A DNA stretch of 13,012 nucleotides from Candidatus Eiseniibacteriota bacterium (GTDB taxonomy: Bacteria > Eisenbacteria > RBG-16-71-46 > JABDJR01 > JAWXBZ01): NCBI GenBank assembly GCA_034440375.1, contig JAWXBZ010000047.1:1-13012 (forward strand), read 5' to 3'. The notes under the pieces were generated by a model that searched no databases, was not told the origin of the DNA, and saw only the letters and a program-made list of their open reading frames with translations. Position 1 is the first letter of the stretch; each line of letters begins with the position of its first letter. Of the stretch, positions 2,139 through 13,012 are shown piece after piece. Made by a program: the position numbers and the translations under genes.

Positions 2139-3569
2139 TTAGGCCACTTGCCGGTGCACCTTTCGCTCGCGTTCCATGTCGTACAGCTTCATCCGGTAGC
2201 GGAGCTTGTCCCGCTTCAGATTCAGCAGGGACGCCGTCCGACTCTGATTCCAGCCGGTGGAATCGGATGCCTTGCGGATCATGGCCTGCTCGATGTCACC
2301 CATCAGTTCCTCGAACATGACCCCACCCGGTGGCATGACCGGTGAATCCAGCACCTGCTCCAGCCGGCTGACGAGCGAATTCGGGTCTCGCCCGTCGCGG
2401 CGAGCCGACAGTGTCAGCATGGCCGAATTCATGGTCGGGCCGTTCTCCAGGAGGACCGTGCGTTCCATCAGATTCTTCAGTTCGCGGATGTTGCCCGGCC
2501 AGTCGTAGTTGACCAGCGCGGCTTCGGCATCCGGCGTGAAGTCCTGGAAGTTCTTGGTGAACGCCCGGGAGAACTGGTGCATGAAGTGCTTGGCCAGCAG
2601 CAGGATGTCCTCGCGGCGCTCGCGGAGCGGCGGCACGAAAATCGGCACGACCTTGAGGCGATAGTACAGATCCTCGCGGAACCTCTGTTCCTGAACCATC
2701 CGGGAGAGATCCTGGTTGGTGGCGGAGATGATGCGAACCGAAACCTTGATGTCCTTGGTGCCGCCGACCCGCCGAAAGGTCATCCGTTCGAGGACTCGCA
2801 GCAGCTTCACCTGGATCGAAAGCGTCATCTCCCCGACTTCGTCGAGGAAGAGTGTGCCGCCGTTGGCCAGTTCCAGCAGTCCCTGCTTCTGCTGGCGTGC
2901 GTCCGTGAACGCGCCCTTCTCGTGGCCGAACAGTTCGGATTCGAGTATTTCCCGGGGGATGGCCGCGCAGTTGATCTCCAGGAACGGCTTGTCGCGGCGG
3001 GCCGACATTTCATGGACCATGTTGGCCACCAATTCCTTGCCGGTGCCGCTCTCTCCCTGGATCAGGACCGAAGTGCTGTCGGAGCGGGCCACCTGCTCGC
3101 ACATGGTGTAAACGTGGTGGATCTTGGGCGAGTTGCCGCGCACGAACTCCTTGGAATAGCGCTGCTGCTGAAGCTGACGGTGATGCTTCAACTCCCGCCA
3201 GAGCTTCTGACTTTCCAGCCCCTTGCCGACGACGATCGAGAGCTGCTCCAGGTTGATCGGTTTGTTGACATAGTCAAAGGCGCCCAGCTTCATCGCCTTG
3301 ACAGCCGAATCGACATCGCCGAACGCGGTCATGATGATGACCGTCATTTCCGGCCAGGCCGACTTGATTTCCTTCAGGACATCCAGGCCGTGAATATCGG
3401 GCAGGCGCAGGTCGAGGAGCACCAGATCGGGCGGCTCCTTCTCGACCGCCTTCAGGGCTTCCTTCCCCTCGGCGGCGGTGGTGACCAGGTAACCTTCGTC
3501 GGTCAGCGCCTTCGAGATGAAGTGCCGGATCGACTCCTGGTCGTCGACGATCAGGATCTGCGAGATCAT
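2139..3569 (-). CDS. Sigma54-dependent response regulator, NtrC/AtoC family (REC-AAA+-Fis HTH), 476 aa
   Basis: Receiver domain ILIVDD...LVLLDLRLPD...MTAF...NKP; Walker A GESGTGKE; GAFTDA loop; Walker B LFLDEVGE; FREDLYYRL; WPGNIREL; HTH WNQSRTASLLNL..KLRYRM. Start placed at ATG 3569, which overlaps the kinase stop (ATGA) and follows GGAGGAG at 3574-3580, not at 3803 as in the track. Confidence 0.96.
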   Translation of the reverse strand: MISQILIVDDQESIRHFISKALTDEGYLVTTAAEGKEALKAVEKEPPDLVLLDLRLPDIHGLDVLKEIKSAWPEMTVIIMTAFGDVDSAVKAMKLGAFDYVNKPINLEQLSIVVGKGLESQKLWRELKHHRQLQQQRYSKEFVRGNSPKIHHVYTMCEQVARSDSTSVLIQGESGTGKELVANMVHEMSARRDKPFLEINCAAIPREILESELFGHEKGAFTDARQQKQGLLELANGGTLFLDEVGEMTLSIQVKLLRVLERMTFRRVGGTKDIKVSVRIISATNQDLSRMVQEQRFREDLYYRLKVVPIFVPPLRERREDILLLAKHFMHQFSRAFTKNFQDFTPDAEAALVNYDWPGNIRELKNLMERTVLLENGPTMNSAMLTLSARRDGRDPNSLVSRLEQVLDSPVMPPGGVMFEELMGDIEQAMIRKASDSTGWNQSRTASLLNLKRDKLRYRMKLYDMERERKVHRQVA

Positions 3570-5449
3570 TGGGCTCCTCCGTTGGAAACCGGCGTCCTGG
3601 GAAGTTCCACGGTGAAGCTGGACCCCTCGCCTTCGACACTGTCGATGCGAAGCAGTCCCCCGTGTCGTTCCACGATGCCATGACAGATGTACAAACCGAG
3701 CCCCGTTCCCGAGGCCTTCTTCGTGAAAAATGGTTCGAACAGGCGCTTGCGAACCTCCGGCGACATGCCCGTTCCCGTGTCGGAAACGGTCATCGTTATC
3801 CATGGCTCTTCGCCTGGACGGCCGGGGCGGGTGCCGGTCCTCAAGGTGAGCGTGCCGCCCGGCTCCATCGCCTCGATGGCGTTCTTGATCAGGTTGATGG
3901 TCACCTGCTGGATTTGATCGGCGTCCGCCGGAACAGCCGGCACCGATTCCGGCAGGATCCGGATGACCTCGATCTGTCGGGCCGTCGCCATGTCGCCGAG
4001 ACTTCGCAGGGATCGTTCCAGGATCAACTCCGGTCGCTCGGGTGCCGTCATGAGCGGCCTCGGATGTGTCACCCGGAAGAGATCCTCGATGATCTGGTTG
4101 AGACGCTGGATCTCCTTCTGGATGAATCCGATGTTGTCGCCTTCCGGGCCCGAGCGGTCCATGCCTCGGGTCAGGTATTCCACCCCGGCTGAAATGCCGG
4201 CCAGTGGATTGCGAATCTCGTGGGCAATGGCTGCCGTGAATCGGCCAAGGGCCGCCAGGCGGTCGAGATGACGGATCCGCTCCTCCATCTCCTTGAAGAC
4301 AGTCAGATCCTGGAAAGTGGCGATGACGCCGTAGATTTCGCCGTCCTCATTGCGCAACGGCGAGGTGGAAACGCTGGCCACGAAGAAGGTGCCGTCCTTC
4401 TTGGAGAGGACAACCTCCTTGCCCAGGACCGGCTTGCCATAGCTGGCGCCGCGAATCGCCGCTTCCATCCCCCGGTCGGCGAGCGGCAGGAATGGCGGGA
4501 TGTCGCCCAGGACATCCTCCATCTCCCACCCGGTCAGACCAACCGCCGTCTGGTTCATCGAGATGGCGCGGCGGGCCAGGTTGATGGCCACGAGGCCCGA
4601 GCCCATGCTGTTCAGGAGGTCGTCCCGGAACATCTCCCCCTGCCGGAGATCCTGGTACAGGCGGCCATTCTCCACGACGGTCGAGAGCGTCGTGGCCACC
4701 GATTCGATCTGGGACAGGTCGTCGCTCGTGAGGGGTGTTTCGCGTCCGCACCGACCGACCATGATGAGGCCGAGAACGGTCGTCCGGCCGTCGGCCGGGC
4801 CGGGAACCTGGTCCAGGTTCTGTCGGCCGGAACCGGCGCCAACCGGTGACGCGAACAAGTGGGCCGCCTTGAGCGGTGCCAGGACGATGGACCCGAGATT
4901 CTCCATGTCGAAGGCCGAGGCGAGATCCCCTTCGCCCTGGTAGAGACCCGCTTCGGTCGGCGATTCGATCAGGCGGGCCTCCCCGCTGGCAAACGAGGTG
5001 GTAACGGCGCCGGTGGCGCCGGGAATCGGCAGAGTGATCTGCGCTTGAAAGAAGCCAAGGCCGGCGCGCCGGATGGCCGTGCCCCGGAGCACCATCGGTT
5101 CGCGGTCGAACAGGAGCACCGCCACCCGACTGTGATCGAAGGCCTTGTGGAGATAAAGCGCAATCGTTTCAGCCGCGCGGTCGGCCGAACGAACGGAAAG
5201 GAGGCGATGTGCGACCTCGCGCAAACTGGTGAGTTGCACACTGGTAGCGATGAGCTGGCGATGACCCCGTTCGACGCGGTCGGCCAGGACAAGGGCGAGG
5301 TTGGACAGGGTGGCGGCGCTCGAAAGATCCGCGTCGTCCGGAATCAGCGGTTCGCGAAGGAGCCCCTGGATTTCATCAAGGCGTCGTTCCAGGGGGTCAT
5401 CCGGCAGGCGGCGTGCGGTCGAGGACATCGAGGAGAGATCCATATCCAT
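3566..5449 (-). CDS. Cytoplasmic sensor histidine kinase (GAF-PAS-HisKA-HATPase_c)
   Basis: H-box AAIAHEIRNPL, N-box NLIKNAIEAM, G1 DTGTGM, F-box FEPFFT, G2 GTGLGL. PAS region LLNSMGSGLVAIN...KKDG...PLRNEDGEIYGVIATFQDLT. GAF-like region ends VLGLIMVGR...VENGRLY. No clear transmembrane helix. Start could be ATG 5449, 5443 or 5428. Confidence 0.94.
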   Translation of the reverse strand: MDMDLSSMSSTARRLPDDPLERRLDEIQGLLREPLIPDDADLSSAATLSNLALVLADRVERGHRQLIATSVQLTSLREVAHRLLSVRSADRAAETIALYLHKAFDHSRVAVLLFDREPMVLRGTAIRRAGLGFFQAQITLPIPGATGAVTTSFASGEARLIESPTEAGLYQGEGDLASAFDMENLGSIVLAPLKAAHLFASPVGAGSGRQNLDQVPGPADGRTTVLGLIMVGRCGRETPLTSDDLSQIESVATTLSTVVENGRLYQDLRQGEMFRDDLLNSMGSGLVAINLARRAISMNQTAVGLTGWEMEDVLGDIPPFLPLADRGMEAAIRGASYGKPVLGKEVVLSKKDGTFFVASVSTSPLRNEDGEIYGVIATFQDLTVFKEMEERIRHLDRLAALGRFTAAIAHEIRNPLAGISAGVEYLTRGMDRSGPEGDNIGFIQKEIQRLNQIIEDLFRVTHPRPLMTAPERPELILERSLRSLGDMATARQIEVIRILPESVPAVPADADQIQQVTINLIKNAIEAMEPGGTLTLRTGTRPGRPGEEPWITMTVSDTGTGMSPEVRKRLFEPFFTKKASGTGLGLYICHGIVERHGGLLRIDSVEGEGSSFTVELPRTPVSNGGAQ

Positions 5450-5711: not shown

Positions 5712-6626
5712 ATGGCATACATTCATCGAATTCTGACCACTTTGCTGCTGGGAGGCGGCCTGTTCGCCACACCCGACGATTCATGGATCCCGGCGGTCTC
5801 GGCCGCCAATCCCCGCGAGCTTGGTGACGTCACCTGGCGTCGCGACTGGGACGTGGCCGCTGCCGAATCACGCCGCAACGGCCGTCCCCTCCTGGTTCTG
5901 TTCCAGGAGATCCCGGGCTGCGCCACCTGTGTCGGGTTTGGCGATGGAGCGCTCTCCAACCCGCGACTGGTCGAGGTCATCGAAACGCTCTTCGTACCGC
6001 TGGCCATCCACAACAACAAGCCGGGCGCCGACAGGGTTATCCTCGAGCGCTTCCGGGAGCCCGCCTGGAACAATCCGGTGGTGCGTTTCCTCGACGCCGA
6101 CGGTAACGACTGGATTCCCCGAAAGGATGGTGTCTGGTCGGAGGGGGCGCTGTCGCGACGGATGCTCGCCGCGCTGGAGAAATCAGGTCAGCCCGCGCCC
6201 GGGTGGTTCCGCCTGGTGGTCGAGGAAATCGACGCCGACGACCCGCAGCGGCTCTACCTGGCGATGCACTGCTTCTGGGAGGGCGAGGCTCGCCTTGGCA
6301 CGCTCGATGGCCTCCTGGCGACGCGGGCCGGGTTCATCGACGGCAAGGAAGTGGTGGAAGTAACCTACGACGCGGTCCGCCTGCCGGCGGATCGCCTGAT
6401 CACGGAAGCCAGGAAGCGCGGTGTGGCCGGGGAGTCGTGGACGGGTAACCAGGTGCCTTTCCGCGAGGCACCCGCATCGGACCAGAAGCGCCACCTGTCA
6501 GGAACGCGCTGGGAATCGGTGGCGCATCTGTCGCCGCTCCAGGCGGCCCGGATCAATTCGGCGCTGGCGAGCGGCGCGCCGGCCGGTCCGTTTCTGACGC
6601 CCAGGCAGGCCGTGACGGCCCGGTAG
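5712..6626 (+). CDS. Thioredoxin-like protein resembling the VPGUxxT (seleno)protein family, Cys form, with C-terminal MsrA-like domain and probable signal peptide
   Basis: N-terminal hydrophobic leader (RILTTLLLGGGLFA). Thioredoxin-like part ELGDVTW...GRPLLVLFQEIPGCATC...EPAWNNPVVRFLD. C-terminal part LYLAMHCFWEGE...DGLLATRAGF..GKEVVEVTYD parallels MsrA GGCFWG.E...GV..T..GY...EAVEVTYD. Fills the gap between flanking minus-strand genes without overlap. Confidence 0.8.
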   Translation: MAYIHRILTTLLLGGGLFATPDDSWIPAVSAANPRELGDVTWRRDWDVAAAESRRNGRPLLVLFQEIPGCATCVGFGDGALSNPRLVEVIETLFVPLAIHNNKPGADRVILERFREPAWNNPVVRFLDADGNDWIPRKDGVWSEGALSRRMLAALEKSGQPAPGWFRLVVEEIDADDPQRLYLAMHCFWEGEARLGTLDGLLATRAGFIDGKEVVEVTYDAVRLPADRLITEARKRGVAGESWTGNQVPFREAPASDQKRHLSGTRWESVAHLSPLQAARINSALASGAPAGPFLTPRQAVTAR

Positions 6627-6651: not shown

Positions 6652-7704
6652 TCAGACCTCTGCGAACAGGTTCCTGTTCGCGCTGACCCAGTCGATCAGC
6701 CTGGCCACGCCTTGCTCGGGCGTGACCGACGGCTTCCAGTTCAACGCCGCCTTCGCCTTGTCGATGTTGGAGATGTAGACCTTCTGGTCACTCGGGCGCC
6801 AATCGCTGTATGACAGAACCGGCGTGATCCCGGTCTTTTCCTTGAGGATGTCAAGCAGCTCGTGCAACGACATCGTGAAATCCGGCCCGCCCCCCATGTT
6901 GAGGACGGCGTGATTCATCGTGGAGTCGAGGAAGGAGCGATAAGCCGTCACCAGGTCGTCGACGTACAGCACGTCACGGACCTGCTTGCCGTCCCCGAAG
7001 ATCGTGATTGGTTTTCCGAGCAGCGCGGCGATGGTGAACCAGGCCACCCAACCCTGGTCTTCGAGGCCGAACTGCCGCGTGCCGTAGATGCACGACATCC
7101 GGAAAACTCCGATCTTGAGGCCGTACAGATGGGCGTAGTCCTGCATGTAGAGGTCACCGGACAGCTTTGAAACGCCGTACGGTGTGTGTTCGCAACGGTC
7201 GATATTGAACGTTTCGGGGATGCCGCGGGCCATCGAGTCCTCGAACGACCAGCGCTTTGGGCTCTCCGTGAGGCCAACGGCATTCACATTTTCGCCATAG
7301 ACCTTGTTGGTCGAGCAGAAGACGATGGCCGGCTTGACCTTTTGTTCGCGGGCGGCTTCCAGAACATTGAACGTGCCGAGGATGTTGTTCTCGAAGTCGG
7401 GTCGCGGATCGGTGACGGAGGTCGTCACGGCGGTCTGGGCCGCGGCATGCACGATGACCTGACACCCCTCGGCGGCGAGCCGCACGGTGTCGGTGTCGGT
7501 CACGCTCCCCTTGATCAATTCCATGCCGGGGATCCGGCTGAGATGATCCCAGTTGAACGTGGCGTTTCGGTCCGGCTTCTTGAGGAGCCGGGCGCGGGAC
7601 AGGTTGTCCAGGACCCGGACCGACCAGCCATCCAGGGCGAACTGCTCGGCCACATGGCTGCCGATGAATCCGGCCCCGCCGGTTACCAGGACTCGTCGAG
7701 ACAT
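6652..7704 (-). CDS. NAD-dependent epimerase, CDP-tyvelose/paratose 2-epimerase (RfbE/Tyv)-like extended SDR, 350 aa
   Basis: TGGAGFIG, STNKVYG, TPYGVSK (YxxxK), FRMSCIYG.RQFG.EDQGWVAWF, GDGKQVRD and WRPSDQK, the motif set of the CDP-tyvelose epimerase subfamily. ATG at 7704 lies 1 nt after the upstream TGA. Confidence 0.9.
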   Translation of the reverse strand: MSRRVLVTGGAGFIGSHVAEQFALDGWSVRVLDNLSRARLLKKPDRNATFNWDHLSRIPGMELIKGSVTDTDTVRLAAEGCQVIVHAAAQTAVTTSVTDPRPDFENNILGTFNVLEAAREQKVKPAIVFCSTNKVYGENVNAVGLTESPKRWSFEDSMARGIPETFNIDRCEHTPYGVSKLSGDLYMQDYAHLYGLKIGVFRMSCIYGTRQFGLEDQGWVAWFTIAALLGKPITIFGDGKQVRDVLYVDDLVTAYRSFLDSTMNHAVLNMGGGPDFTMSLHELLDILKEKTGITPVLSYSDWRPSDQKVYISNIDKAKAALNWKPSVTPEQGVARLIDWVSANRNLFAEV

Positions 7705-7705
7705 C

Positions 7706-8872
7706 TCAACGCCCCCCTGCGGTGGTCGTCGCGCCGCTGCGGGCAAACTCGATCACCGCATCGGCAACTCGCCGGCGTTGTGCCGTCGATAGTTCAGCGT
7801 GAACCGGAATGGAGAGGACCTCCCGGCAGGCCATGTCGGTATTAGGAAACGAGCCGCCCGCGAACCCCATATCGGCGAAGCAGGGTTGACGGTGCAGCGG
7901 GATCGGATAGTAGACGATGTTTTCGATGCCGCGGGCGGTCAGGTGCTCGCGCAGGCGATCGCGATCGCTGGCGAAGAAACTGTACTGGTGATAAACATGC
8001 TTCGCCCGGTCATCGACTCTCATCAGGCGGATGGCCGGTCCGAGATCGGCGAAAGCACCGTCATAGAAACAGGCATTCTCCCGGCGGAGCTCGGTCCAGC
8101 GTGGCAGGGCCCGGAGCTTGATGCGCAGGACCGCGGCGTTCAGGGCCGACAGCCGGCTGTTGAGCCCAAGTTCGACATGCTCGTAGCGGACACGCTCACC
8201 ATGGTTGCGGAGGCGGCGGAGCTTGGCGGCCAACGCCTCGTCCTTCGTCCAGATCATCCCCCCCTCCCCCGGCGCACCGAGGTTCTTGCTGGGGTAGAAC
8301 GAGGTTGTCCCGGCCAGCCCGACGGAACCGCACGGCGTGCCCTCCCAGGTGGCGCCGATCGATTGGGCACAGTCCTCGATGAGCGGGAGTCCGGCCTCGT
8401 CGGCCACTTTCTTCAACCCGGTGACGTTGGCGCACTGGCCATACAGGTGAACGGCCAGTATGGCCTTCGTCCTCGGGGTGATGGCCGCCCGGACCGCCTC
8501 CGGGTCGATGTTCAGTGTGTCGGGCTCCACATCGACGAAAACCGGCCGCGCCCCCGCCAGCCGTACGCTGGAGCCGCTGGCCAGGAATGTCATGGACGGC
8601 ACGATGACCTCGTCCTCCGCGGTCAGGTCGAGCGCCCGCCAGACCAGGATCAGGGCGTCGGTGCCGCTGGCGACCCCGATGCCGAACGGGACCGCATGCA
8701 ACGCGGCAATTTCCTTCTCGAAGGCCTCGACCTCGGGGCCAAGGATGAAGCGTCCGGTGTCAAAAACGTGCTTGACCGCCGCATCAATTTCCGGGCGGAG
8801 CGGGTCGTACTGGGCCTTCAGATCAATCATGCCGACCATGGGCAAGCTGGAAGGCGTGGGCTCTGGCGCCAC
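7706..8872 (-). CDS. DegT/DnrJ/EryC1/StrS family PLP-dependent nucleotide-sugar aminotransferase (WbpE/GnnB-like)
   Basis: IDLKAQY, FILGPEVEAFE, SGTDAL, VHLYGQ, IEDCAQ, SFYPSKNLG (PLP lysine), NSRL, HVYHQY, YYPIPLH. Start placed at GTG 8872, with AAAGGA 8 nt upstream, rather than TTG 8914. Confidence 0.93.
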   Translation of the reverse strand: MAPEPTPSSLPMVGMIDLKAQYDPLRPEIDAAVKHVFDTGRFILGPEVEAFEKEIAALHAVPFGIGVASGTDALILVWRALDLTAEDEVIVPSMTFLASGSSVRLAGARPVFVDVEPDTLNIDPEAVRAAITPRTKAILAVHLYGQCANVTGLKKVADEAGLPLIEDCAQSIGATWEGTPCGSVGLAGTTSFYPSKNLGAPGEGGMIWTKDEALAAKLRRLRNHGERVRYEHVELGLNSRLSALNAAVLRIKLRALPRWTELRRENACFYDGAFADLGPAIRLMRVDDRAKHVYHQYSFFASDRDRLREHLTARGIENIVYYPIPLHRQPCFADMGFAGGSFPNTDMACREVLSIPVHAELSTAQRRRVADAVIEFARSGATTTAGGR

Positions 8873-8941
8873 CGACTGTATCCTTTCTCTGGCGCGGCCC
8901 GCGAGGCCGCTCAATTAAGTTCGCCGGGCATGAGGAAAACC

Positions 8942-9928
8942 TCAGCCTTGCGGGACGACGGATTTCTGGAAGTACGCGACGGTCCGCGACAGACCGTCCT
9001 CGAAGCTGACCCGGGGCTCGTAGCCAAGAATCCGGCGGGCGCGTGTGATATCCGCCTCGGAGTGGCGGACATCCCCGGCCCGGGCCTCGCGATATTGCGG
9101 AGCCACGTCCCGCCCCGTCAAGGCGGCCACCAACGCCACCAGTTGATTGAGGCTGTAGCGTGTGCCGCAGGCCATGTTCAGGATTTCACCCCGGATGGCA
9201 TCCGCCGGAGCGCGGGCCGCCAGGAGATTGGCGTCGACGACGTTGGCCACGTAGGTGAAATCGCGGCTCTGCTCGCCATCGCCATTGATGACCGGCGGCT
9301 GCCCCTTGAGGATTCGATCGATGAAGATCGGGATGACCGCCGCGTACTGGCTGTCGGGACTCTGGCGCGGGCCGAACACGTTGAAGTAGCGCACCGTCAC
9401 CGCGTTGAATCCGTACAGGGCGCCGAACTGGCGGCAGTAAAGTTCGCCGTCCCTCTTGGTCGTTCCATACGGGCTCATCGGGATGGTGGCCATCTCCTCG
9501 GTCTTGGGAAGCCCCTCCACCTCCCCGTATACGCTCGACGAGCCGGCAAAGACAAACCGGGAGGCGCCGGCATCCCGCGCGGCCAGGAGGAGTCGAAGCG
9601 TACCGGTCGTATTGACCTCGTTGGTGGTCAGGGGGTCCTCGACCGATCGTTCCACCGAGCCGAGAGCGGCCAGATGAAAGACCACATCGATGCCGGAGAC
9701 GGCCCGGGTGACATCGGAGGCATCGCGGAGATCGCCGGTCTGTACCTCAAGACGGGAAGCCGCCGGCCCAACCGCTTCCTTCACCTGCGCCAGGTTTTCG
9801 GATCGGCCGGTCGAGAAATTGTCCAGGACACGGACGGCATTGCCTTCGCCGAGCAGCCGCTCGACCAGGTGACTGCCGATGAACCCGGCGCCGCCGGTGA
9901 CGAGGACTCTTGAGGTGGGTGTCAACAT
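8942..9928 (-). CDS. NAD-dependent epimerase, UDP-GlcNAc(A) 4-epimerase (WbpP/TviC)-like extended SDR
   Basis: TGGAGFIGSHL, HLAALGSVERS, SSSVYG, SPYGTTK, RYFNVFGPRQ.P.SQYAAVIP.F, GDGEQSRDFTYV, GDVRHS. Confidence 0.92.
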   Translation of the reverse strand: MLTPTSRVLVTGGAGFIGSHLVERLLGEGNAVRVLDNFSTGRSENLAQVKEAVGPAASRLEVQTGDLRDASDVTRAVSGIDVVFHLAALGSVERSVEDPLTTNEVNTTGTLRLLLAARDAGASRFVFAGSSSVYGEVEGLPKTEEMATIPMSPYGTTKRDGELYCRQFGALYGFNAVTVRYFNVFGPRQSPDSQYAAVIPIFIDRILKGQPPVINGDGEQSRDFTYVANVVDANLLAARAPADAIRGEILNMACGTRYSLNQLVALVAALTGRDVAPQYREARAGDVRHSEADITRARRILGYEPRVSFEDGLSRTVAYFQKSVVPQG

Positions 9929-9940
9929 GGTCGATGCGTC

Positions 9941-11275
9941 CTAGAGCCGGGAGATGGTCGATTCGCGTCGACCCTTGAAGACGTTTCGGGTATCGAAGAT
10001 GGCGATCGACTCGAGGGCCACCAGATCCCAATCGATGTTCTTGTGACCGGCGGTGACGACCACGCAGTCAGCCGCCCGGAGACGGTCCGCCGTCAGGGCC
10101 ACGCCGGTCATCTTCAGGTGGTCGTGCTCGAATGCCGGAATGAACGGGTCGTGATATTCGACCACGGCTCCCCGCTTCTGCAGTTCGGTAATGACATCGA
10201 GCGCCGGGCTCTCCCGAAAATCGTCGATGTCCGGTTTGTAGGCCACGCCGAGGATCAGGAGTTTCGATCCCTTCACCGGCTTTCCCGCATCGTTCAGGAC
10301 CTGGGCCACCCGATCGACCACGTAGTGCGGCATCGAGGCGTTGATCTGTCCGGCCAGTTCGATGAAGCGGGCCTCGAAACCCGATTCGCGGGCCTTCCAT
10401 GACAGATAGAAGGGGTCGATCGGAATGCAGTGGCCGCCGAGCCCCGGGCCCGGATAGAACGGCATGAAGCCGAACGGCTTGGTGGCCGCGGCGTCGATGA
10501 CCTCCCACACGTCGATCTTCATCCGGTCACAGAGAAGCGCAAGTTCGTTGACCAACCCGATATTGACACTCCGGTAGGTGTTCTCCAGGAGTTTCACCAT
10601 CTCCGCGACGCGGGTACTGGAAACGGGAACCACGGTCTCGATGCTCGTCTGGTACAGGGCGCTGGCCACCCGCGTGCAGGCGGGCGTGACACCGCCGACG
10701 ACCTTGGGGATGTTGTGTGTCTTGTACTTTGCATTGCCGGGATCAACCCGTTCCGGGCTGAAGGCGAGGAAGAAGTCCTTCCCCACCGTAAGTCCCTTTT
10801 CCTCGAGGCGAGGCAGGATCAGCTCGTCGGTGGTACCGGGGTAGGTGGTGCTTTCGAGCAGGATCAACTGCCCCGGATGGAGATAGGTCACGATCTGATC
10901 GACGGCGGCCACGATGTAGGAGACGTCCGGATCCTTGGTTTTACGGAGCGGTGTTGGTACACAAATGTTGATCGTATCGACATGCGCCAGTTCCGCAAAA
11001 TCAGTGGTGGCCGAAAGACGTCCGGAGGTGACCTCGGCGGCCAGGACGGCGTCCGACACGTCCTTGACATGGGATACCCCTGAATTGATCCCGTCAACTT
11101 TTCGGACATCGACGTCAAAACCCGTGACGCGGAACCCCGCCCGGGCCAATTCCACGGCCAGGGGCAGGCCGACATAACCGAGGCCGATGACGGACAGGTG
11201 AGCGGTGCGCGCCTCGATTTTCTGTATGAGATCGGACAGTGACGGACTCCTTTCGATCGGGACCCGAACCCTCAT
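9941..11275 (-). CDS. Nucleotide-sugar 6-dehydrogenase (UDP-GlcNAc dehydrogenase WbpA/WbpO/TviB-like)
   Basis: GLGYVGLP, ICVPTP, ESTTYPGTT, FSPERVDPGN, KLLENTYR.VNI...NE, GGHCIPIDP (catalytic Cys), YKPDIDDFRESP. Maximal extent given; the true start is probably CTG at 11239 (see findings). Confidence 0.95.
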   Translation of the reverse strand: MRVRVPIERSPSLSDLIQKIEARTAHLSVIGLGYVGLPLAVELARAGFRVTGFDVDVRKVDGINSGVSHVKDVSDAVLAAEVTSGRLSATTDFAELAHVDTINICVPTPLRKTKDPDVSYIVAAVDQIVTYLHPGQLILLESTTYPGTTDELILPRLEEKGLTVGKDFFLAFSPERVDPGNAKYKTHNIPKVVGGVTPACTRVASALYQTSIETVVPVSSTRVAEMVKLLENTYRSVNIGLVNELALLCDRMKIDVWEVIDAAATKPFGFMPFYPGPGLGGHCIPIDPFYLSWKARESGFEARFIELAGQINASMPHYVVDRVAQVLNDAGKPVKGSKLLILGVAYKPDIDDFRESPALDVITELQKRGAVVEYHDPFIPAFEHDHLKMTGVALTADRLRAADCVVVTAGHKNIDWDLVALESIAIFDTRNVFKGRRESTISRL

Positions 11276-11338
11276 TCACAGCCTGTTTTCGGCCGGCCCG
11301 ACCCTTCGAAACAGCTTTCGGACGATTTGGGAGCGCCA

Positions 11339-11368
11339 AGTCTAACAAAGACTTACGACGGCTGTCAA
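11339..11368 (-). promoter_or_regulatory. Sigma70-type promoter for the nucleotide-sugar operon
   Basis: Minus strand: consensus TTGACA (11368-11363), 18 nt, TAGACT (11344-11339) with a TGn extension, in a locally AT-rich patch upstream of the dehydrogenase. Confidence 0.7.
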
Positions 11369-12090
11369 AAATTGGCTGCAAGGGCGGCGAGGGCCAGGGC
11401 CGTCAAGGCGCCGACGAGCGTATTCGTGAAATTGAGCGCCTGGTGGCCGAGCGGCAACCGCCCGGCGGCCAGGCTTTCATATAGCCCGCCGATGACGCTG
11501 CCGGCAATGACCGGCAGGAGAGCGGCCGGCATGATCTGGCGCACCAGCACTGCCACGGCGGCCAGGAGGGCTGCCAGTGCCAGTGCCCCGAGCGTCCCCG
11601 CCAGTGACACGGCGCCCTCGGTCCCCGGGGGCACCTTTCGGAAGCTCCGCAGGCTGATCGGCGTCCGGCCGTACAGCCCGCCGATTTCCGACCCGGCTGT
11701 ATCGAACAGGGCCGTGGTGAACGAGGCGGCGAAGGCGGCGCGGAGTGGTTCCCAGCCGGTCAGCAGCCAGGCCAGCGCCGCCAGGACACCCACGCCGCCG
11801 TTGGCAACGGCGTTCTGCCAGCCACGACGCCCCCCTTTCTCCTCCGCCAGCCCCCGGGCCGCCTTGCGCGCGTAGCCGAGTTTGGTGAGCAGGCTCCCGA
11901 GAACGAAGAACGCCGCCAGGACCGCCCACCACGACCAGCCACCGGCCGTCCATATAATCGTGCCGACGAGGAGCCCGGCCACGACGCCTGAGCGACGCAC
12001 GGTGCCGGCTCGAGCGGCCAGGAGCGCGAGGGCTGCATTGACCGCCAGGCCCACCGCGGCCCGTGGGAGCAGCGCCTGCCAGTCCATCAT
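11365..12090 (-). CDS. DUF92 (TMEM19/VTE6-like) integral membrane protein, about 241 aa
   Basis: Several hydrophobic helices plus DUF92 motifs FFVLGSLLTK...K...EEKGGRRGWQNAVANGG, DTAGSEIG and VPPGTEGAVSLAGT. ATG at 12090 (or 12087) overlaps the upstream TGA; the track's extension to 12459 lies inside the upstream gene. Confidence 0.9.
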   Translation of the reverse strand: MMDWQALLPRAAVGLAVNAALALLAARAGTVRRSGVVAGLLVGTIIWTAGGWSWWAVLAAFFVLGSLLTKLGYARKAARGLAEEKGGRRGWQNAVANGGVGVLAALAWLLTGWEPLRAAFAASFTTALFDTAGSEIGGLYGRTPISLRSFRKVPPGTEGAVSLAGTLGALALAALLAAVAVLVRQIMPAALLPVIAGSVIGGLYESLAAGRLPLGHQALNFTNTLVGALTALALAALAANF

Positions 12091-13012
12091 GACCGGAGCC
12101 ACACCAGCGTCGTCTCCAGCGCCGCCTCGAACGGGGTGATGCGATAGCCCAGCTCCCGCTCGGCCTTCGCGCTCGAGTAGATCCATTCGTGACGATAGAT
12201 GTCGATCTCGCCGCGCGTGAGGCGCGGCGATCCGCCGAACGCCCCGGCCTTCCACTCCTCGAGCGCGGCCACGAGCTTTCCGACGCTCCAGGGAATGTCG
12301 CGCGTCGGCACGGTCACGCCCAGCTTTCGCGCCGCCCGTTCCGCCACCTTGCGCAGCAGGACGTCTTCCCCACCCAGAATGTAGGCCTCCCCCACCCGCC
12401 CCTTCTCCAGCGCCAGCACGTGGCCACTCACGACATCCTCGACGAAGGCCATGTTCCACCGGAAGCGCGCGCCCCCCAGGTGACCCGGAAACTTGCCGAT
12501 CTGCAGCCAGCGCAGGATGCGGGCCACGTGGTTGCCGTCGGTTTCGGCGCCGGGTCCGTAGATGACCGTCGGGATGACGGTGATGAGCGGCAACCCGCGC
12601 GGCAGAAAATCGCGCAGCAATCGCGCCGCCCGGAATTTCGTCGAGTGATACTCGTTGAAGAACCGGGGCGGCGGGGGCGCCGCGAGCGTCGACTCATCTA
12701 CCGGTTTCCCGTCCAGCGAAGGTCCGAGCGCAAAGAACGACGATGTGTACAGGAACTGCGTCACGCCGGCCATCAGCGCCGCCTCGCACACCGTCCAACT
12801 CCCCCCGACATTCACCCGCTCGAACTCGCCCGGATCGGGCATCCAGTTCCGGACCAGCGCCGCCGCATGAATCACCGCATCGCACCCGTCCATCCCCGCC
12901 GCCAGCCGGCCGGCCGCATCCGGATGCGGATCACCCAGCGCACCGATGACCGTGCGGTACGCGACACCCGGAAGAACCGGCGCCCGCGCCGGATCGCGCA
13001 ACAGCAGCACCA
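12087..13012 (-). CDS. NAD-dependent epimerase/dehydratase, HpnA/dihydroflavonol-reductase-like extended SDR; 5' end outside the window
   Basis: GCDAVIHAAALV, VNVGGS, YTSSFFALG, NEYHSTK (YxxxK), PTVIYGPG, VEDVVSGHVLALEKGRVGEAYILGGE, SSAKAERELGY. The Gly-rich NAD-binding motif would lie off the right edge. Confidence 0.88.
   Translation of the reverse strand, partial: VLLLRDPARAPVLPGVAYRTVIGALGDPHPDAAGRLAAGMDGCDAVIHAAALVRNWMPDPGEFERVNVGGSWTVCEAALMAGVTQFLYTSSFFALGPSLDGKPVDESTLAAPPPPRFFNEYHSTKFRAARLLRDFLPRGLPLITVIPTVIYGPGAETDGNHVARILRWLQIGKFPGHLGGARFRWNMAFVEDVVSGHVLALEKGRVGEAYILGGEDVLLRKVAERAARKLGVTVPTRDIPWSVGKLVAALEEWKAGAFGGSPRLTRGEIDIYRHEWIYSSAKAERELGYRITPFEAALETTLVWLRS

Follow-up and report, generated by a model that had tools for sequence, protein, structure and literature searches.

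A predicted exported protein that joins a thioredoxin-like and a trimmed MsrA-like domain is a candidate self-recycling sulfoxide reductase from a family with selenocysteine at two centres

The stretch of DNA analysed here, called the window, comprises 13,012 nucleotides of a contig (JAWXBZ010000047.1) from a Candidatus Eiseniibacteriota bacterium, and the gene in question is the open reading frame (ORF) 5712-6626 on its plus strand. This frame is open from an ATG start and encodes 304 amino acids, with Cys only at positions 70, 73 and 187 by scripted count (codons 5919-5921, 5928-5930 and 6270-6272), exactly as listed in an earlier reading of the sequence alone, hereafter the original prediction. 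The protein matches the NCBIfam family NF041383, "VPGUxxT family thioredoxin-like (seleno)protein, type 2", with 314.8 bits against a curated cut-off of 275 (E 6.4e-94, profile positions 1-285 of 287), and a search of the genome gave the same result. Since this score lies above the curated cut-off, 5712-6626 is a real gene and a chance ORF is excluded. The [VI]-P-G-[U/C] redox motif of the family is present as I-P-G-C70-A-T-C73, and the window protein is an all-Cys form. The type 1 family, NF041382, was matched by residues 32-159 alone, with 116.8 bits, below its cut-off of 350 bits. The original prediction had referred to a family of FQE[VI]PG[CU] proteins with selenocysteine (Sec) members; this family is NF041383, and Sec members were indeed found. 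Table 1 collects the features of the gene, with conservation among 120 aligned homologs and among 150 representatives of 50%-identity clusters, for which the denominators vary with the alignment column.

Table 1. Features of the gene 5712-6626 and of its product, in window coordinates.
Feature	Position	Strand	Remarks
Whole gene	5712..6626	+	304 codons plus stop; NCBIfam NF041383 member
Leader, residues 1-31	5712..5804	+	Basic n-region (H5, R6), hydrophobic core I7-A19, possible cleavage between A-V-S-A and A
Thioredoxin_7-type domain, residues 36-172	5817..6227	+	
Redox motif C70-A-T-C73 in FQEIPGCATC	5919..5930	+	Invariant in 120/120 homologs
P122, presumed cis-proline (WNNPVVR)	6075..6077	+	At least 90% conserved among homologs; cis conformation presumed from knowledge of the fold
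Trimmed MsrA-fold domain, residues 176-304	6237..6623	+	
Active-site motif H186-C187-F188-W189-E190-G191-E192	6267..6287	+	MsrA counterpart G-C-F-W-G; flanking Gly differ
F208, position of the MsrA Tyr in G-Y	6333..6335	+	F 49, W 46, Y 10 of 120 homologs
E213, position of the MsrA catalytic Glu	6348..6350	+	E in 119/120 homologs, 146/147 representatives
D257 of the conserved S-D-Q-K motif near the C-terminus	6480..6482	+	D in 115/120 homologs; D in 90/135 and E in 28/135 representatives

The leader reaches a Kyte-Doolittle maximum of 1.79 over 10 residues and is modelled with a predicted local distance difference test score (pLDDT) of about 55. A comparable hydrophobic stretch lies ahead of the domain in 115 of the 120 homologs, the other five having short N-termini. 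Hydropathy and homologs thus bear out the leader that had been described as signal-peptide-like, and the protein is predicted to be exported. Beyond the first 30 residues, the only uncertain ones, the full-length AlphaFold2 model built from the 120 aligned homologs is confident (mean pLDDT 92.9, predicted template modelling score 0.86). Pfam assigns Thioredoxin_7 to residues 41-129 (E 1.1e-8), structure comparison matches the N-terminal domain to DsbD-gamma and DsbH, and the model places C70-A-T-C73 at the start of helix 71-78. The C-terminal domain, modelled alone from 56 sequences (pLDDT 95.6), was compared with 48,161 chains, and Foldseek agrees on an MsrA fold (E 3.0e-5). The family profile detects MsrA in the PDB by sequence (E 3.1e-8), and the Pfam profile PMSR (PF01625) aligns with residues 181-222 (E 1.9e-4, 22.2 bits, profile positions 2-42 of 153). 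The two folds proposed in the original prediction were therefore recovered, the second half modelling as an MsrA fold, so that the first of the refutation tests set for the prediction did not overturn it.

Profile alignment to the MsrA of Clostridium oremlandii places C187 at residue 16 (U16C), E213 at Glu55 and F208 at Tyr37. Residue 16 is a natural selenocysteine in that enzyme and a Cys in its crystal structures, and Glu55 is mutated in 4lwl and 4lwm. Alignment to the MsrA encoded by the same genome gives the same three equivalences, so that C187 stands at the catalytic Cys of MsrA, as had been proposed. Residue 188 is Phe or Tyr in all 120 homologs, and C70, C73, C187, W189 and G191 are invariant in the same set. 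Two absences noted in the original prediction were also found: relative to the genome's own MsrA, a 17-residue deletion removes the NPxY...GH loop between G-Y-x-G-G and H-x-E, and the window protein holds no resolving Cys, extra Cys occurring among the homologs in the columns of V238 (78%) and R194 (38%). In Escherichia coli numbering the catalytic Glu is Glu94 and the Tyr of G-Y, which hydrogen-bonds the sulfoxide oxygen, is Tyr82. Judged by alignment, MsrA's nucleophile, methyl pocket and acid catalyst are kept, and at least one oxygen-binding Tyr is lost. Because at least one and perhaps two of the three sulfoxide-oxygen ligands of MsrA are not kept, the earlier caveat that the substrate may not be methionine sulfoxide stands.

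The trimmed fold also brings a different kind of protein into view. The C-terminal core shares its beta-alpha-beta-beta core with HMA/CopZ domains and gives weak profile matches to the HMA domains of CopZ and CopA (E 0.0039 to 0.7), and there are exactly three invariant Cys; C70, C73 and C187 might jointly bind a soft metal or metalloid (Cu(I), Hg(II) or As(III)) through their three thiolates, which would make the protein an exported chaperone or detoxifier. We regard this as very improbable. HMA domains use two loop Cys and the window protein has one; their M-x-C-x-x-C loop together with the full beta-alpha-beta-beta-alpha-beta domain is not found in it; one subgroup of the family dispenses with C73; metal binding would leave W189 and E213 without a function, and no metal-resistance genes lie nearby.

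The family is widespread. A word-indexed search scored 8000 candidates, 1588 of which reached E 1e-5 or better, with 74% identity for the closest, and an exhaustive profile search of 50%-identity clusters recovered 2723 representatives at E 1e-3 or better, including 571 at E 1e-30 or better. Relatives are encoded by 555 stretches of the genome collection, which their record labels attribute to Myxococcota, Planctomycetota, Bacteroidota, Verrucomicrobiota and other environmental bacteria, strains of Aquimarina, Portibacter and Winogradskyella among them. The spread is patchy: of 41 genomes, namely that of the window and those of 40 relatives, only three contain a full-length member, and a strong match to the thioredoxin part occurs in 17 of the 206 genomes of the phylum. 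Among the cluster representatives, C187 is present in 149/150, C70 in 134/136 and C73 in 118/137, so that C187, whose conservation the original prediction relied on, is retained well beyond the close homologs. C73 is replaced by Val in 16 representatives, by Ser in two and by Ala in one (19/137). A VPGCxTV subgroup of 17 of the 150 representatives (P0159, P0183, P0185, P0187, P0192 and 12 more) does without C73, keeps C70 and C187 and carries 2-5 Cys in total. By sequence, the near-universal pair is C70 plus C187, and the VPGCxTV subgroup points to these two residues as the core couple.

Natural Sec forms bear on the same two positions. A metagenome scan with the motif F-Q-E-[VI]-P-G, TGA at the C70 codon, x-T and two further letters returned 77 loci, 71 of which are family members according to a hidden Markov model (HMM) of the alignment. 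The remaining six (L132, L152, L160, L164, L171 and L176) were dropped by this HMM as chance matches. TGA at the C70 codon, which the original prediction had pointed to as worth seeking, is thus found in 71 metagenomic relatives; all of them have Cys at position 73, where the scan pattern allowed four dinucleotides. Position 187 is reached by 58 of the 71, with a Cys codon in 33 and an in-frame TGA in 25. In these 25 forms the TGA falls exactly at the C187 codon and is followed by [FY]-W-x-G-E, and frame and similarity continue to the normal C-terminus. Under the standard code, the frame that runs from the first TGA ends at the second, around residue 180, so annotation pipelines are likely to cut double-Sec members. 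The double-TGA loci are L112, L114, L119, L120, L122, L128, L129, L133, L136, L138, L139, L147-L150, L153, L154, L156, L159, L163, L165, L166, L169, L179 and L180. Reading of TGA as Trp or Gly was rejected: the adjacent Trp is TGG in the site 2 sequences inspected, and TGA ends many of the same ORFs, which makes a reassigned genetic code unlikely. In a separate set of predicted proteins (P0190, P0207, P0208, P0216, P0240, P0245, P0247, P0250, P0251, P0257-P0259 and P0263), the match begins at profile positions 65-81, just past C70; these are probably further Sec70 forms, in which the gene caller restarted after an in-frame TGA.

Hairpins resembling selenocysteine insertion sequences (SECIS) accompany both codons. 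With a perfect stem of at least 7 bp located 10-48 nt 3' of the codon as the test, stems were present at site 1 (C70) in 67% of Sec forms (n = 69), compared with 9% of Cys forms (n = 65) and 12% of shuffles, and at site 2 (C187) in 84% of Sec forms (n = 25), compared with 16% (n = 31) and 17% (n = 63) of two sets of Cys forms and 20% of shuffles. Most of the site 1 hairpins have a GTC, GGTC or GGT loop, and most of those at site 2 an AGTT or AGTTG loop; one stem pair of site 2 covaries (CG 8, GC 6, AU 3). Sec generally sits at catalytic redox positions. Since Sec occurs at both centres and the C73-less subgroup keeps C70 and C187, these two residues probably form a coupled redox pair. The genome of the window encodes SelB, which indicates an organism able to make selenoproteins; it can do so, yet uses Cys at both centres of the 5712-6626 protein.

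The same genome offers possible redox partners. A CcdA-type DsbD_TM gene (246 aa, 63.7 bits) adjoins a gene for a TlpA/ResA-like redoxin (193 aa) elsewhere in the assembly (G000:C227, L188:792-2169, minus strand), and the pair is a candidate periplasmic reducing relay for the 5712-6626 protein and other exported thiol enzymes. The canonical MsrA of the genome (G000:C105, L002:1180-1713, minus strand) is a cytoplasmic protein of 177 aa with no leader and the motif G-C-F-W-C; because this separate enzyme is present, 5712-6626 is not the housekeeping one.

Taken together, we judge it moderately probable, from sequence comparison and modelling, that the gene encodes an exported two-centre thiol oxidoreductase, a self-recycling 1-Cys sulfoxide reductase of the MsrA type whose CxxC would be reduced by a CcdA-TlpA relay. 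The cycle would start with C187, which is predicted to lie where helix 1 of the trimmed MsrA fold begins, with the F188/W189 pocket and the acidic E213 next to it. Its attack on a methyl sulfoxide, for which methionine-S-sulfoxide in peptides or proteins of the envelope is the likeliest candidate, would turn it into a sulfenic acid. C70 would then attack C187 to form an inter-domain disulfide, C73 would resolve the C70-C187 bond to give a C70-C73 disulfide, and this disulfide would be re-reduced from outside by the CcdA-dependent periplasmic relay. In this scheme the protein would behave like a 1-Cys MsrA that thioredoxin recycles directly, except that its thioredoxin is part of the same chain. 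We infer the substrate, the order of the thiol exchanges, the electron donor and the contact of the two centres. The observation behind the original prediction is confirmed, and its interpretation as a self-recycling repair enzyme is partly supported. More tentatively, the exported enzymes of the whole family may share a composite active site made of the thioredoxin-fold [U/C]xxC and the MsrA-derived [U/C]-[FY]-W-x-G-E, in which double-Sec forms would turn over via an inter-domain diselenide or selenenylsulfide. The substrate of such a site could be a sulfoxide or a related oxidised compound other than peptide methionine-S-sulfoxide, because at least one and perhaps two of MsrA's three oxygen ligands have disappeared and the thioredoxin domain contains many invariant polar residues.

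Several results weigh against the proposal of a self-recycling MsrA-type reductase, and some of them favour other readings. Concerning the second half, its PMSR score falls short of the Pfam gathering cut-off of 23.7 bits, so that the window protein is no PMSR member by that threshold, which 5 of 9 longer relatives scanned did pass (24.0 to 30.5 bits). Position 208 holds Tyr in only 10 of the homologs and in 7 of 148 cluster representatives, and the HMM alignment stops at about residue 230 of the window protein, short of the central MsrA segment, which we take to carry a second Tyr and an Asp (Tyr134 and Asp129, E. coli numbering). These losses would also suit an enzyme that runs the same relay from C187 through C70 to C73 on an oxidant that is not a sulfoxide (a peroxide, hypohalous acid, selenoxide, N-oxide or substrate disulfide), in other words an exported peroxidase- or scavenger-like enzyme on an MsrA scaffold: the Tyr of G-Y is not kept, the NPxY loop is deleted, the central segment is unaligned, and Sec at the reactive residue fits peroxide or hypohalite as well as sulfoxide chemistry. 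We consider such an enzyme unlikely, as the methyl pocket and the acid catalyst of MsrA persist almost without exception ([FY]188, W189 and E213).

Concerning the first half, invariant residues are more numerous in the thioredoxin domain, where many are polar, than in the MsrA-like domain; E66, N101, N102, R125 and R137 of the thioredoxin domain are among them. Two of the 150 representatives lack C70 and C73 while keeping C187; a single one lacks C187. The thioredoxin domain may thus be the main catalyst, the more so as it recurs in type 1 with a different C-terminal region. Carried further, the thioredoxin domain would be the sole catalyst, an envelope disulfide reductase or isomerase, and the MsrA-like domain would serve to bind substrate or to sense redox state, its C187 being a regulatory thiol. 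The bulk of the invariant residues, the reuse of the domain in NF041382 and the representatives with C187 and without C70 speak for this arrangement, which nevertheless appears improbable to us: a mere regulatory thiol sits poorly with Sec187 and its own SECIS-like hairpin in 25 of 58 Sec70 forms, with the retention of the catalytic Glu and Trp of MsrA, and with the presence of C187 where C73 is lost.

The remaining points concern the RNA evidence and the genomic context of the proposed reductase. The SECIS-like hairpins sit in differing registers, and RNAalifold gave no consensus structure at site 1 and only six weak pairs at site 2. Minimum free energy z-scores of 60-nt windows were -0.97 in Sec and 0.10 in Cys forms at site 2 and did not separate the two at site 1 (-0.08 versus 0.02, p 0.31), and, the Sec relatives being kin, the Mann-Whitney p-values are too generous. 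Finally, all-versus-all clustering of the ORFs around the family gene in 80 genome loci plus the window yielded no conserved neighbour, the best non-self cluster reaching 7/81.

Hypochlorite and peroxide strike the proteins of the envelope first, and to our knowledge three envelope repair systems are known: MsrPQ, the PilB-type Trx-MsrAB fusions and the CcdA-Etrx-MsrAB2 relay. MsrPQ, a periplasmic molybdoenzyme with a haem membrane partner, has the same presumed task of repairing oxidised envelope methionine, but as a molybdopterin enzyme it is unrelated in fold and chemistry to the thiol-based window protein, and no similarity between them arose in any search. Neisseria PilB (MsrAB) is a Trx-MsrA-MsrB lipoprotein reduced by DsbD, in which MsrA and MsrB are full-length and each has its own recycling Cys. 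The window protein, by contrast, has no MsrB (no SelR match) and a trimmed 1-Cys MsrA, and its thioredoxin domain, unlike that of PilB, is of the Thioredoxin_7 type, similar to DsbD-gamma and DsbH. The stand-alone, cytoplasmic selenoprotein MsrA of C. oremlandii (PDB 4lwj, 4lwl, 4lwm, 4u66 and 4w8c) comprises about 205 residues, of which about 70, including the loop after G-Y-x-G-G, are without counterpart here. A further review describes exported Msr enzymes that receive their electrons through a CcdA relay in the membrane, namely CcdA-Etrx-MsrAB2 of Streptococcus pneumoniae and the CcdA-dependent MsrAB of Haemophilus influenzae (PMC13488963). In those systems thioredoxin and Msr are separate and co-encoded, whereas the window protein fuses them and its gene has no conserved neighbour; they are alike in that the window's genome also has CcdA next to a TlpA-like redoxin. 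The window protein may thus be likened in its working to PilB-type or CcdA-Etrx-MsrAB2 systems, and it stands outside both families, since it has no MsrB, an MsrA trimmed by about 70 residues and a single Cys in that domain.

The family itself has been named before. A table in a review lists it as "hypothetical protein OS_HP5" with one Sec in the motif VPGU (PMC13188914), in contrast to the forms described here, which carry a second Sec at the MsrA-like centre. That review is the only place in the literature searched where the VPGUxxT name was found. OS_HP5 appeared in two reviews only and was absent from the passages seen of PMC1976440 and PMC2398784. No characterisation of NF041383 and no Msr-type enzyme with two Sec was found in the same literature, nor, subscription papers and the NCBIfam description aside, was any mention of a second Sec or of a relationship to MsrA in the portions seen. 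As far as this literature goes, the family name was known already, and the assignment of the second half to MsrA, the additional Sec and the probable coupling of C70 with C187 are new. If the proposed self-recycling reductase is real, the family would represent a fourth and much more compact design of envelope repair. Cys and Sec alternate in nature at both centres, and one subgroup has lost C73; together these forms provide a ready-made mutagenesis series for the recycling of 1-Cys Msr enzymes and for the use of selenium. A concrete, testable function is thereby offered for a widespread, curated and uncharacterised selenoprotein family in which each of the three thiols is varied in nature; the window's own gene is an ordinary all-Cys member.

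Some relatives depart from the common architecture. P0198 (636 aa) carries a C-terminal PDZ domain after both redox domains, a weak hint at peptide substrates, and P0174 (722 aa), another rare longer member, has an alpha/beta-hydrolase-like N-terminal domain. No type 1 protein (NF041382) scored above the cut-off in the 206 genomes of the window's phylum, in the 5 genomes that hold type 2 or in 251 genomes from a different phylum; the C-terminal part of type 1 was matched weakly by proteins with unannotated tails after a thioredoxin-like part.

In the window, the gene stands alone on the plus strand. Upstream and divergent from it lie a GAF-PAS histidine kinase (3566-5449, minus strand) and a sigma-54-type response regulator (2139-3803, minus strand), followed farther upstream by LptE and the DNA polymerase III delta subunit. 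The kinase and regulator ORFs overlap by 238 bases as listed; because the receiver domain begins only at residue 83, the true start of the regulator is probably farther downstream. At 4 of 81 loci the family gene has a histidine kinase like that of the window in its vicinity. A promoter search gave 47 matches to the sigma-54 consensus where 43.7 were expected, none of them convincing upstream of the gene, and a sigma-70 scan gave 0 matches. Two relatives of the same class have unrelated neighbours, DUF547 plus a transposase in one case and an M13 peptidase in the other; in the former (genome G034, L013:5989-6822, plus strand), the DUF547 gene is directly upstream of the family gene and the transposase, of the IS110 type, directly downstream. 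Downstream in the window, a convergent run of sugar-nucleotide genes (6652-13010, minus strand) encodes two NAD-dependent epimerase/dehydratases, a DegT-type aminotransferase, a UDP-glucose/GDP-mannose dehydrogenase, a DUF92 membrane protein and another epimerase, and looks like a surface-polysaccharide cluster. The G+C content is even over the region. Antisense to the DegT aminotransferase (7706-8914, minus strand) and to an epimerase (8942-9928, minus strand) runs a plus-strand ORF of 704 aa without Pfam match (7799-9913), which is probably spurious and a product of G+C-rich DNA.

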